Shown piece after piece: positions 4,589 to 12,509 of a DNA stretch of 64,000 nt. The notes beneath the pieces are model-generated. The model had not been told where the DNA came from, made no database searches, and saw only the letters and a program-made list of their open reading frames with translations. The DNA is taken from the IMG/VR virus record IMGVR_UViG_3300027896_000010, positions 32,001 through 96,000 of that record, one strand, 5' to 3'. A program made the translations under genes and the position numbers. Source of the stretch: a virus. Position 1 is the first letter of the stretch, and each line of letters opens with the position of its first letter.

Positions 4589-4885
4589 TTACTCTGCCCT
4601 TCTGTCGTCAAACATCTGAAGCACTTCATCATATATGCGTCTGATTGCCTCTTCTTTGGCTCTTTCAAACCACATGTCTACTTCCTTTTTCGCCATGCTT
4701 TTGACTTCACCAGTACTGGCATTGGGCTTATTCTTCACAAACCAATTGAATATGGCAGTCGCCTCGGCTCGGACTTCGACATCAGGCATAGAAGGATATG
4801 ACCAAGCTTCCTTCGACAGGCCTCTATCTTCTCCAAGAACTTCATCAACCACTTTTGATATGATTTGGTCTAGCTGGTCGCCCAT
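4589..4885 (-). CDS. Leader-helix family protein
   Basis: Starts MGDQLDQIISKVVDEVLG; SD GGGAGG. Confidence 0.8.
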   Translation of the reverse strand: MGDQLDQIISKVVDEVLGEDRGLSKEAWSYPSMPDVEVRAEATAIFNWFVKNKPNASTGEVKSMAKKEVDMWFERAKEEAIRRIYDEVLQMFDDRRAE

Positions 4886-5040
4886 AACATCACATCCTCC
4901 CTTTGAGTCCCTCTATGTCTCGCTAAGTCCCACATGGAGCGCGAGAAGCCGTCAGCATTGCTGTATCGTTGGAGGAAATCTATAACCTCTCGATTGGCTT
5001 CTCGAACCTGTAGCTTTTCATAGAGAACTCCTTTTGACAT
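4870..5040 (-). CDS. Small hypothetical protein, 56 aa (below the ORF-track cutoff)
   Basis: Manual translation MSKGVLYEKLQVREANREVIDFLQRYSN...; fills the gap between neighbours. Confidence 0.4.
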   Translation of the reverse strand: MSKGVLYEKLQVREANREVIDFLQRYSNADGFSRSMWDLARHRGTQREDVMLWATS

Positions 5041-5108
5041 ACTGCTTACTGTCCTATCTCAAACTGGCGTTTCCCACGCTCCAGTTGTGGGTCTATTCTC
5101 GGACACTT

Positions 5109-5360
5109 TTAGTCCATTAAACTTTTAATAATTTGCAATGCTCGTGCTGTATCCTTTCCCAATCCAGTGATTACATCACCAAGCCACTTTTTGGCACCTT
5201 CCAAATCGCCATGGTTTATATCTTCGAGCGCCCAAGGCAATTTAGTTTCGGCGTAATAACGCATCCCACCAATAATCTCTAGAAGCTGAGACATGTCCGA
5301 CCATCCCAACACTTCATGAACTGCTTCCTTTACTATCTCTCCAATGCGCTCTTCATTCAT
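5109..5360 (-). CDS. Leader-helix family protein
   Basis: Starts MNEERIGEIVKEAVHEVLG; SD GGAGGAAG. Confidence 0.8.
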   Translation of the reverse strand: MNEERIGEIVKEAVHEVLGWSDMSQLLEIIGGMRYYAETKLPWALEDINHGDLEGAKKWLGDVITGLGKDTARALQIIKSLMD

Positions 5361-6141
5361 TCTCTTCTTCCTCCAAGTCGCTCAAGATATCATCAAGCTG
5401 GTCAATGCAATCCGCTAACTGGTCTATGGCTTCATCTATTGATGAGACAGGATTAAGCTTAAGGTCTATAAGCTGTTGCCCTATCTCAGCGATATCTGTC
5501 TGCCACTGTTCGGCATCATCTTCTATGCCATCTTCTTGCAGTTCGTCAAATGGCTCTTCCTCTTCACCCAGTACTTCTCTCAGTACCTTTGATATCACAG
5601 CTTCAAGCTTATCTTCATCCATAGCTATCTCCTTTATACTTGCCGCTGGTCGTAATGACCAAGGCCCTTTGGCGCTCCACTCTTCTGGCTCATTCTGATT
5701 ATACTCAGCAGTACCTATCTCCTGACCGCACTCTGGGCAGTGGAGAATCCAGCATGCAGGTTCGAAATCGCAATCATCATTGCTCTCGTATTCCTTATCC
5801 GCTTTCGATTCACTACCTTTCCATCCACAGAAATCACAGGTCAATAACCTTGTAGGCTCTCCCCATCTTGCTTCCTTGTGGTACTTCATATATTGCTCAC
5901 CGAACTCTGTAAAGCCATCCTCGGTAGTCCAGTAGACTTTGTCTATGTCCTCATCTGCGAACCACGCTTGTACCCTCGCTGGGACTCCGTATTGTTCGCT
6001 CAGCTTCTGAGCTTTCTTGATGGCATTAGGGACATTCGTCGCGCCCTGCCCACTTGACCTCCAGCCACTTGGTGTGCCAGATATCTTTTTCCCGAATTGG
6101 AGATATACTTGATAGGCTCCATAGCCACCATGTTTAGTCAT
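5353..6141 (-). CDS. Composite protein: N-terminal domain, Zn ribbon, internal leader helix, very acidic C-terminal domain
   Basis: CDFCG...CPECG; internal MDEDKLEAVISKVLREVLG at 5622 with its own SD AAGGAG. Confidence 0.75.
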   Translation of the reverse strand: MTKHGGYGAYQVYLQFGKKISGTPSGWRSSGQGATNVPNAIKKAQKLSEQYGVPARVQAWFADEDIDKVYWTTEDGFTEFGEQYMKYHKEARWGEPTRLLTCDFCGWKGSESKADKEYESNDDCDFEPACWILHCPECGQEIGTAEYNQNEPEEWSAKGPWSLRPAASIKEIAMDEDKLEAVISKVLREVLGEEEEPFDELQEDGIEDDAEQWQTDIAEIGQQLIDLKLNPVSSIDEAIDQLADCIDQLDDILSDLEEEENE

Positions 6142-6322
6142 CTATATCCCCCCTAAGCATCTCCAAAGCTTTCTGTGTCTTGCTATGCATCTCGTCTATT
6201 AAATCTAATATCATAGTTGACTCTGCATGTCTCATAACCGCTACTCTGGCGAACCAGTTCATTCCGTCTATATCGTTAAGCAATCCCTTAACGACTTTGA
6301 TATCAATTTCTTCCGAAGGCAA
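6134..6322 (-). CDS. Small hypothetical helical protein
   Basis: ORF packed between neighbours; TTG start with AAGGA upstream. Confidence 0.55.
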   Translation of the reverse strand: MPSEEIDIKVVKGLLNDIDGMNWFARVAVMRHAESTMILDLIDEMHSKTQKALEMLRGDIDD

Positions 6323-6325
6323 TTG

Positions 6326-6844
6326 CTAGGTTCCTTGGTTAAGCTGATGTCTATCGATAGTGACGTCTGCCCTTCGATATGCATCATTTCCATATTGCAT
6401 TTTGAATGCTTCATACTCTGCCGACATTATGTTCTCATAGAAATCTCTTGCTGTTTCTCCAGTATGAGTATCAACCCCCAACTCTATGCTTTTATCATCA
6501 TCATAGGTCGAATCATTTGATGGGAAGATATCCCAGCCTCTATCATAGTTGACTAGGACATTGGCCCAAGAGTCATTGGGGACCCTAGCCGAAGTATCCG
6601 ATATCGTGAGCCTAGAAATATGACCGTTGTTTATGCCGAACTCAGATGGCTCATCAAAGAACTGAACGTTAGCCTTAAGGTTGTCCTTGCCAACCAATAC
6701 ATAATTACTCCCTGAATCTACATTTACCGTATAGCCCATCTTCCTCAAGATGCTTGCGAAGTGTTCTAGTATCTGGCTCTCCTCTTCCTCCTGCCCCAAA
6801 ACTTCCTTTACCACTTTTGATATGATTTGCTCTAGTTCGTCCAT
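6326..6844 (-). CDS. Leader-helix family protein with a cargo domain seen in other phages/MGEs (FDEPSEFGI..GxISRL...NYDRGWD)
   Basis: Probable start is ATG 6844 after SD GGGAGG; begins MDELEQIISKVVKEVLG. Confidence 0.8.
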   Translation of the reverse strand: MDELEQIISKVVKEVLGQEEEESQILEHFASILRKMGYTVNVDSGSNYVLVGKDNLKANVQFFDEPSEFGINNGHISRLTISDTSARVPNDSWANVLVNYDRGWDIFPSNDSTYDDDKSIELGVDTHTGETARDFYENIMSAEYEAFKMQYGNDAYRRADVTIDRHQLNQGT

Positions 6845-11000: not shown

Positions 11001-11270
11001 TCAGGGAAACATCTCCAGCCATTGAGTCAGGTCGCCACATACGTCCAAGGCTTTATCCAGATACTCTTTGATATTCCCACTCTCACCAGATACCTTCCCA
11101 GATATCGTTCCCTTCGTCTGGAGGAAGTCGAATATCGGTTCGAGCTTTGCTGAGGCTCCCGACAGTTCCGTATATATCGTGTTAAGAGCGGTAAGCAGGT
11201 CGAACCTGTCTACCGCTAGGACTACCCTTATGGCATCTGCTGTGATGGCTTCGAGCCTGTCTTCATCCAT
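11001..11270 (-). CDS. Leader-helix family protein
   Basis: Starts MDEDRLEAITADAIRVVLA; SD AAGGAG. Confidence 0.78.
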   Translation of the reverse strand: MDEDRLEAITADAIRVVLAVDRFDLLTALNTIYTELSGASAKLEPIFDFLQTKGTISGKVSGESGNIKEYLDKALDVCGDLTQWLEMFP

Positions 11271-11281
11271 GGCGTTCTCCT

Positions 11282-11545
11282 TCAGTCCAATAAATCGTTT
11301 GAAAGCCTTCTAAGGTCTGCCAGCCTGTTTGAAATCACACTTAGCCAGAAGGACATTCCTTCTTCGAGTACTTCTCTAGGAGAGAACTGAGGGACTCGCT
11401 CCTTATCCTTACAGGCTTCCATTATCGAGTGTGCCGCTTGGAAGATATCGTATGCCTTATCCGATATTTCTTCGAACTCTTCTCCGCTCTGGAAAACCTG
11501 ACGAACAGTCTCGGCTATAATTTCTTCGAGTCGCTCTTCGTCCAT
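11282..11545 (-). CDS. Leader-helix family protein
   Basis: Starts MDEERLEEIIAETVRQVFQ; SD AAGGAG. Confidence 0.78.
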   Translation of the reverse strand: MDEERLEEIIAETVRQVFQSGEEFEEISDKAYDIFQAAHSIMEACKDKERVPQFSPREVLEEGMSFWLSVISNRLADLRRLSNDLLD

Positions 11546-11560
11546 GGTATTCTCCTTGTG

Positions 11561-11758
11561 TTAGACCTTATGCTCAGAGCATTTACAATTATCGTGGATA
11601 TCCCCGGGCATCAGACCCCCAGCATACTCTCCCCCTGCGGGTCGCCTCTCCCCATCCATCTCTTGACAAGCCTCACAGCATCCGGGCATACTCGTCCATT
11701 CATACTCTTCTTCGTCGTCGTCCTGACCGTAGACCTCGAAATGTTCCTTGATACCCAT
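11561..11758 (-). CDS. Mini protein resembling the Cys/His C-terminal motif of MuF-type head morphogenesis proteins
   Basis: EWTSMPGCCEACQEMDG...PGDIHDNCKC resembles W..C..C..LDG...HPNCRC. Probable start is ATG 11758 after GGGAG. Confidence 0.55.
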   Translation of the reverse strand: MGIKEHFEVYGQDDDEEEYEWTSMPGCCEACQEMDGERRPAGGEYAGGLMPGDIHDNCKCSEHKV

Positions 11759-11762
11759 TAAG

Positions 11763-12509
11763 CTACTCCCAATCCCAGTTACAGCTATTAATAAGCCACC
11801 CAACTTCATCAGATACCAAGTTAGCAATCTGGTCATCTATAATCTCTTCATCCCAATCATCAGGAACTTCAACTTTTACTGTGTCGGGCAAATCGATATC
11901 AACATCTTCTCCCAACTCTTCGTCATAAGTATCCCAGTTGATATCAGTTACAATAGCAACCCTTGCAGTTTTATAGATAGCCCCAACCACCCTAGCTATA
12001 ATATCATCAATCTTTTCATCCATACTGTAACTGGCTACCGCTCCAAGCCCCAAGCCCTCTAAAGTTTCATTGAGCTTCTCGGCTAGGTCAGGGTTAGAAT
12101 GGACGAGACGCTTATAGATATACTTCCACGAGCCACCACGAATCCGAACATCTTCCACCATATGCTCTAGCTCTGGCATGGCTTCCAGTACCTCATCTTC
12201 CCATGGCAAGTTCACAGCAATCTCAACTCGTTTAGCCTCAGTTATTTCAGCAACTACTCTAGTTATAATTTCATCAAGATTGTCCATGCCATTTCTCCTA
12301 GCATAGTATGGCATGTCATAAGGAACGACCATGGGTCGTTTACTGATAGGCTGGTCTTCGCCACGTTGGTAGTCCTGACCAGTAGGGGTGGAGATGTTTC
12401 CTCGGAAGGGGTCTAGAAATCCTGTGTAGATTTCGTAGTTGAGAGCTTCATCCTCAACTTCTTTTTCTTCTTCTTCTTTTTCTTTTCTTGGTCTAGATTT
12501 ATATCCCAT
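11763..12509 (-). CDS. Composite protein with two internal leader helices and acidic cargoes
   Basis: MDNLDEIITRVVAEITEA at 12287 (SD AGGAG) and MDEKIDDIIARVVGAIYKTA at 12023. Confidence 0.72.
   Translation of the reverse strand: MGYKSRPRKEKEEEEKEVEDEALNYEIYTGFLDPFRGNISTPTGQDYQRGEDQPISKRPMVVPYDMPYYARRNGMDNLDEIITRVVAEITEAKRVEIAVNLPWEDEVLEAMPELEHMVEDVRIRGGSWKYIYKRLVHSNPDLAEKLNETLEGLGLGAVASYSMDEKIDDIIARVVGAIYKTARVAIVTDINWDTYDEELGEDVDIDLPDTVKVEVPDDWDEEIIDDQIANLVSDEVGWLINSCNWDWE

Follow-up and report, generated by a model that had tools for sequence, protein, structure and literature searches.

Why would a phage attach copies of one short helical peptide to a series of small proteins that otherwise have almost nothing in common? 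This question is raised by a gene cluster in a 64,000-nucleotide stretch of phage DNA (the window, bases 32001-96000 of the 193,437-bp virus record IMGVR_UViG_3300027896_000010), for which a preliminary description had listed 17 segments of an encapsulation-peptide-like leader. All 17 were found on the minus strand, exactly where they had been placed, and follow the consensus M-D-E-x(0-2)-L-E-x-I-I-x-K-V-V-x-E-V-L-G/A, a 19-residue helix that we call the tag. Its copies stand at the N-terminus, at the C-terminus or inside proteins, and the acidic modules to which they are fused, encoded in the late/structural arm of the genome including the head-gene block, are exchanged rapidly. The reading that we favour, with somewhat better than an even chance of being right, is that it serves as a helix-bundle docking tag through which interchangeable proteins, made late, are brought into the prohead core, and that modules would be freed at separate alanine sites.

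The conserved element is the peptide. Between tag copies, the mean proportion of synonymous differences (pS) is saturated at 0.76 and that of nonsynonymous differences (pN) is 0.34, and some pairs show a pN of only 0-0.06 at a pS of 0.4-0.8. The pair at 6801-6844 and 8074-8117, on which the claim of selection had first been based, indeed differs at 4 of 44 nt and encodes identical peptides. Third codon positions of the tag are 35% identical. Upstream, the DNA is alike solely at the Shine-Dalgarno (SD) sequence; downstream, the sequence is unconserved (30% nucleotide identity) and often just a few acidic residues long before the cargo begins. Since pS is saturated, pN is low and upstream likeness is limited to the SD sequence, it is the peptide that forms the conserved, selected unit, and it is under purifying selection. 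Comparison of the tag DNA also led us to reject a DNA repeat or recombination cassette. The copies share synonymous codons slightly above expectation (0.40 vs 0.32), and this small excess suggests that the tag spread by duplication or recombination.

Within the window, the 17 copies are spread over 14 reading frames (window positions; ORF, open reading frame):

4589..4885, minus strand: tagged ORF of 98 aa with N-terminal tag
5109..5360, minus strand: tagged ORF of 83 aa
5353..6141, minus strand: 262-aa fusion of an N-domain, a CxxCGWxG zinc ribbon, an internal tag at 5622 with its own SD sequence and a very acidic 70-aa cargo
6326..6844, minus strand: tagged ORF of 172 aa, cargo DUF7678 (PF24726, E 7e-16)
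6920..7177, minus strand: tagged ORF of 85 aa
7430..7723, minus strand: tagged ORF of 97 aa
7734..8375, minus strand: 213-aa ORF with two tags (8375, N-terminal; 8117, internal, with its own SD sequence) and zinc ribbon cargo
8388..9065, minus strand: 225-aa ORF with two tags (9065 and 8924)
9078..9386, minus strand: tagged ORF of 102 aa with a divergent tag and a GTG start
9495..9797, minus strand: tagged ORF of 100 aa
10225..10740, minus strand: tagged ORF of 171 aa; a terminator-like hairpin (10828-10853) lies upstream
11001..11270, minus strand: tagged ORF of 89 aa
11282..11545, minus strand: tagged ORF of 87 aa
11763..12512, minus strand: 249-aa ORF with a conserved N-domain followed by tags 12287 and 12023

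Tags 5622, 8117, 8924, 12023 and 12287 are nested inside longer ORFs, all of them except 12023 with their own SD sequence, and tags 8924 and 9386 begin with GTG. With a profile hidden Markov model (HMM), the copies in the window score 23-36 bits and the best match outside the cluster is negligible, in line with the statement that the leader is absent from the rest of the window. A genome-wide matrix scan raised the number of copies to 29 by adding 12, of which nine lie at genome 22.4-31.6 kb and three in the head module (genome 166917, 167712, and 176282); no copy was found in the 93-kb replication/metabolism arm. Three of the 12 copies outside the window lack a Met and are therefore truly internal peptides. 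In total, about 25 unrelated acidic proteins of this genome carry the tag. Gly or Ala ends 30 of 38 tags, and the mean hydrophobic moment of the tag core (0.62) ranks in the top 1.1% of genome windows, as the proposed amphipathic helix would have it. A low-confidence single-sequence model of the 8388..9065 ORF places helices at residues 3-19, 33-45, and 50-69.

These features bear on the idea that the tag is a gene-capture or expression module, i.e., a strong SD sequence with a well-translated, stabilising 5' segment that seeds recombination and encodes a peptide without a receptor. An SD sequence of its own precedes most copies, even nested ones, the excess of shared synonymous codons fits, and cargo turns over completely between relatives. 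Nevertheless, we regard this explanation as very improbable: the peptide is kept where synonymous change is saturated, DNA identity ends at the SD sequence, and Met-less internal and C-terminal copies are conserved as peptide.

Most tagged cargoes are stand-alone proteins of 60-170 aa with no recognisable effector domain. They are as acidic as first described, with a median net charge per residue of -0.097 vs -0.026 in 139 other small ORFs (P = 4e-8), and all 26 cargoes measured are net acidic. Recognised domains comprise DUF7678, GP88, zinc ribbons and, in a relative introduced below, a ferritin-like domain; there are few fusions, and no enzyme families were found among the scanned cargoes. 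Almost all cargoes are mutually unrelated, as had been claimed, but a CxxCGWxG...CPxC zinc ribbon occurs among the tagged proteins and is shared with KTA-jointed polyproteins encoded next to the portal. Beyond acidity, nothing supports the DNA-mimic anti-defence role that had been envisaged for them.

The setting of the tag is that of a large phage with a head unlike that of T4. Nearly all genes of the 193-kb genome lie on the minus strand, and they include portal, head maturation protease, major capsid protein, and tail sheath. The major capsid protein shares ~41% identity with its counterparts in Myrna, in further cluster C (Bxz1-like) mycobacteriophages and in Gordonia phages, and phage G gp27 is its only PDB match. 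On the basis of this capsid kinship, we assign the phage to the large myoviruses with a Bxz1/phage G-type (gp27-type) head and without a T4-type head. The three head-module tags are located between protease and scaffold (one) and between major capsid and head-completion genes (two).

Comparison with a relative (the phage from run SRR15116522), whose capsid protein is 91% identical, shows how the tag behaves when cargo changes. Behind the anaerobic ribonucleotide reductase gene nrdD, the syntenic cluster of the relative contains five N-terminal tags and one C-terminal tag, mostly on other cargo. Its head module has two tags at syntenic post-capsid sites, again with different cargo, one of which is ferritin-like (rubrerythrin/EncFtn-like). 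One cargo bears an N-terminal tag here and a C-terminal tag in the relative, as expected of a binding motif, and another has an internal tag here and a front tag in the relative. In the relative's orthologue of the 11763-12512 ORF, the N-domain is kept (50% identity), the tags are replaced by Lys-Ile-Ala and Ala-Ser-Arg-Arg-Thr-Ala junctions, and the cargo is another one. As a separate observation, the tagged ferritin-like domain (L010:15674-16222), standing among head genes, is reminiscent of encapsulin cargo.

The junctions in this orthologue belong to a motif class that recurs in the head proteins. Two shorter motifs are recurrent in the genome, namely QRKIA and, in two polyproteins encoded next to the portal, (A)SRKTA; their common core is [KR][TIV]A. 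This core occurs 27 times in the head proteins of the phage (9.1 expected) and 20 times in its tail proteins (23.8 expected), and is enriched in head, not tail, proteins in both phages. Ten dereplicated distant scaffolds contain 45 copies vs 12.7 expected (P 2e-12, ~3.5-fold), usually followed by Gly, Ser or Ala, and the relative's scaffold has an extra cargo module inserted between two such motifs. The prohead protease has an invariant His and Ser, and its model aligns with T4 gp21 (Z 9.8, rmsd 3.2, 127 aligned) and with VZV assemblin (Z 9.2, rmsd 2.5, 114 aligned); the Foldseek matches to assemblin were weak (E about 0.03) and were accepted once a second aligner agreed. Assemblins cleave after Ala. 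Taken together, the enrichment in head proteins and scaffolds, the gp21/assemblin-like protease model and this cleavage preference indicate that [KR][TIV]A is probably the maturation site of the prohead protease. Because the 11763-12512 orthologue has these motifs in place of tags and the zinc-ribbon family is found in both classes of protein, the tag belongs to the same cargo system as the [KR][TIV]A motifs and is exchangeable with the motif that marks the scaffolds of this clade.

A possible receptor may lie in the protease itself. Both tag-bearing phages encode a C-terminal three-helix domain in this protein (residues 252-314; L007:16622-17566), which was not detected in 80 distant loci. 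Since the domain is confined to tag-bearing phages, we consider it, from two genomes, a candidate tag receptor.

Several other observations concern the head proteins and the motif class. A short amphipathic motif, A-G-L-W-D-x-I/L-K, is preceded by an Ala in the GP88-domain protein and in the scaffolds of both phages (L007:12288-15872, L002:9976-11301). The two portal-adjacent polyproteins with (A)SRKTA-jointed modules are found at genome 180994-187259 and at L214:4300-9984; the relative keeps their anchor segments and swaps the modules, one of which is DUF2958. A third tag, M-N-Q-R-K-I-A or internally S-Q-R-K-I-A, occurs on unrelated genes (genome L001:5676-16775, L101:6132-7166), among them the gene of a 1,744-aa multi-module protein, and in the relative this third tag is likewise joined to different cargo.

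How far the tag extends beyond these two phages was assessed at several levels. A search of 1.84 billion representatives returned 13 tag matches, comprising nine from this genome, two from relatives, and two repeat proteins. Besides the two phages compared here, two proteins from other samples bear the tag. None of the 80 distant Bxz1-like head loci contains it, and five distant Bxz1-like records gave no significant match. Its absence from the distant head loci identifies it as a sub-clade feature. No further carriers emerged when viral, metagenome, and genome collections were scanned for the exact pattern, and the ESM Atlas gave no match for the tag or for the amidase tail. The tag corresponds to no family in Pfam, PHROG, NCBIfam or PDB, the PDB matches being designed helical repeats, and our literature search found no description of it or of any targeting peptide in Bxz1/phage G-type heads. 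A tagged gene from another sample (L011:920-1176) stands alone, divergent from a terminase-like gene and with a TATAAT site upstream.

The nearest precedent for the preferred reading, recruitment into the prohead core, is the capsid-targeting sequence (CTS) of T4, a 10-19-residue N-terminal propeptide on the basic, variable internal proteins IPI/IPII/IPIII that is cut at L/I-x-E (PMC9026906, PMC3012670). The analogy drawn in the preliminary description holds in that both are short conserved peptides common to small, variable, unrelated proteins of a large myovirus; in addition, the modelled head protease has a gp21/assemblin fold, and the T4 internal proteins are likewise dispensable. It breaks down in other respects, since the tag may be internal or C-terminal, including the three Met-less copies, and mostly lacks the putative cut site. 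Moreover, it is found in about 29 copies in a phage with a Bxz1/phage G gp27-type head, unlike the gp23-type head of T4. The tag is thus not a member of the T4 CTS family.

Two further phage systems offer partial parallels. Large T4-type (Gp23) phages have a leader, L-T-E-S-D-L-H-x-I-V-K-E-S-V with the core L-T-E-S-D-L-H, for which we found 108 exact matches; in five Gp23-encoding records it occurs in 7-17 copies per genome on unrelated cargo. This leader has a basic N-terminal extension, ends in I/L-x-E in 92% of cases, and aligns in register with the tag (hhalign 80%; matrix median 8.0 vs 4.1 for the shuffled 99th percentile), whereas the tag HMM gave no significant match to it (best E 0.08 per genome). 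Both are multi-copy helical leaders, but the tag ends in V-L-G/A and not in I/L-x-E, and the likeness may reflect either homology or convergence. Our literature search found no paper on this leader. Phage polyvalent proteins (PMC5512222) resemble the tagged proteins in having swappable modules that follow one another in late genes and for which packaging in the head is predicted. They differ in that the tagged cargoes are mostly stand-alone and are linked by a common helix in place of a junction site or MuF domain.

Outside phages, the tag most resembles the encapsulation peptides of bacterial microcompartments (BMCs). Among 5.8 billion proteins, the closest non-phage match is to a clostridial HbpS-like protein encoded beside a class II aldolase and lies in its N-terminal extension; homologues of this protein occur in 80 clostridial loci, 68 of which have shell-like genes. 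In those loci, the tag matrix selects N-terminal, C-terminal, and internal encapsulation peptides with scores up to 27; the original HbpS-like match scores 31, and the tag's own copies have a leave-one-out median of ~32. The likeness first noted is therefore genuine for these clostridial peptides; the examples then given score low (3.8 for E. coli EutC), and E. coli EutE likewise scores 3.8. Most tag copies match the PduP residues that matter for bundling of that peptide (PMC12339742): at the position of PduP I10, 37 of 38 tag copies are aliphatic, 34 of 38 are acidic at that of E16, and 31 of 38 are basic at that of R11 or the next position. Tag and encapsulation peptides (PduP, EutC, class II aldolase) share the ~18-aa amphipathic helix, its hydrophobic register and charge pattern, and the freedom to stand N-terminally, C-terminally or internally. 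In contrast to encapsulation peptides, the tag is phage-encoded, its copies are far more alike in sequence, and its linkers are often short. Given that the phage genome has no match to the BMC shell family PF00936 and that the cargoes are not microcompartment enzymes, the tag does not belong to the encapsulation-peptide family as defined (PMC4594438), though it looks like such a peptide and may work like one.

This resemblance could mean that the tag mimics a host encapsulation peptide and sends phage proteins to host microcompartments in order to disable, exploit or hide in them. Such mimicry would account for the top non-phage match and its homologues in BMC shell loci, where the tag matrix picks out the local encapsulation peptides, and two proteins encoded in the cluster of the relative, an SdrD_B protein that ends up with an LPXTG-type sorting signal and one of the Amidase_2 family (jointly L101:7181-8395 and 10406-11485), suggest a monoderm host. 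However, we consider it improbable, as the phage has neither a shell gene nor microcompartment enzymes among its cargoes and the head-gene copies are left unexplained; in addition, peptides that share a pattern but not sequence (PMC4594438) make convergence easy, and EutC and EutE score low.

Encapsulation peptides on their own drive condensation via trimeric bundles (PMC12339742), which raises another alternative, namely that the tag drives co-assembly outside the virion, either as a cytoplasmic condensate of ~25 late proteins or by docking on a phage or host hub protein. The retention of the PduP-matching residues, the presence of two tags in several proteins, and the lack of an obvious cleavage site in the tag all fit this possibility. 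We judge it unlikely because it does not explain why both phages have tag copies among the head genes, why the tag interchanges with the scaffold motif, or why the cargo pool is common with the portal-adjacent polyproteins. The chance that some other explanation applies is small, about as small as that of microcompartment mimicry.

What then argues for the prohead core is circumstantial, yet this function, which the preliminary description had proposed, remains the best supported: head-gene tags are present in both phages with swapped cargo, the tag interchanges with the putative protease motif, the zinc ribbon is common to both classes of protein, the protease is gp21-like in its model, and the cluster is located in the late arm. 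The leader of T4-type jumbo phages, the T4 CTS, and the bundling of encapsulation peptides serve as precedents. Regarding the timing of expression, the tagged cluster has none of the 11 coding-strand TGnTATAAT sites (host-type extended -10), which are confined to the 45-138 kb arm (P 3e-4); this is consistent with late expression of the cluster, and fibre-like and cell-wall-hydrolase genes are interleaved with it. TAGATA was tried as a late-promoter word and is not enriched.

Several points weigh against packaging into the prohead. Twenty-six of the 29 tag copies are far from head genes, and the cargo is acidic, in contrast to the basic internal proteins of T4. The [KR][TIV]A motif shows no enrichment in tagged ORFs (5 vs 5.4 expected), and therefore the tag does not seem to be the maturation site itself; just 3 of the 29 tags have the putative site close by. 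Helices that resemble the tag in the scaffold did not reach significance, since 11/200 and 20/200 shuffled sequences scored as high, and on this shuffle test we rejected the scaffold as the source of the tag. In the relative, late genes are preceded by TATAAT-like sites, which makes the promoter argument weak, and the synteny rests on this one relative only.

If the tag does act in the prohead core, its Ile/Val/Leu face would hold late-made tagged proteins together in bundles like those of encapsulation peptides or would attach them to a helical domain in one of the core proteins, for which the three-helix C-terminal domain of the prohead protease and the scaffold are candidates. The tagged proteins would become enclosed as the capsid assembles, and chains of several modules would probably be cut by the protease at Lys/Arg-Thr/Val/Ile-Ala sites separate from the tag, which would usually remain attached. 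More speculatively, the cargoes could be ejected with the DNA as a variable host-conflict or early-acting set.

The tagged cluster also includes or adjoins genes without a tag:

2537..4579, minus strand: IPT/TIG-domain protein, probably a virion fibre, which divides the tagged cluster into two blocks
9806..10183, minus strand: untagged coiled-coil gene within the cluster
11561..11836, minus strand: untagged Cys-rich gene of 91 aa within the cluster, kept in the relative (48%)
12924..16175, minus strand: NrdD, anaerobic ribonucleotide reductase with intein, the syntenic upstream anchor of the tagged cluster in both phages

In both phages, the NrdD intein (window 12924-16175) holds a LAGLIDADG endonuclease. 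The portal of the relative (L010:547-4119) also bears an intein, which is absent from the portal here. A 260-nt gap in the cluster (window 10741-11000) contains the hairpin and repeated TAAAAC words upstream of the 10740 gene and is possibly a regulatory site. Directly downstream of the tagged cluster, response-regulator-like and PAS-like genes (genome 20258-21629) were recognised by eye.

To our knowledge, selection of internal head proteins in large phages is known only for the T4 CTS, and the receptor has not been pinned down there. The tag described here is well defined, has named candidate receptors and comes from a head lineage not related to that of T4 (Bxz1/phage G type); it would represent a further form of peptide-directed cargo loading, distinguished by a non-T4 head, position independence, the absence of the putative cut site from most copies, and its likeness to encapsulation peptides. 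A bolder proposal, which we think rather unlikely, is that a captured or convergent microcompartment-type peptide bundles a 25-protein cargo core inside an HK97 capsid or hijacks host microcompartments; tailed phages and bacterial organelles would then have in common a position-independent, uncleaved cargo-loading tag. The impact of these findings is tempered by the recurrence of shared leaders in large phages and by the fact that this clade is uncultured and sparsely sampled. If prohead loading is correct, about 25 proteins per genome would be flagged as candidate virion-delivered factors, and the tag would provide a portable loading signal for HK97-type shells.

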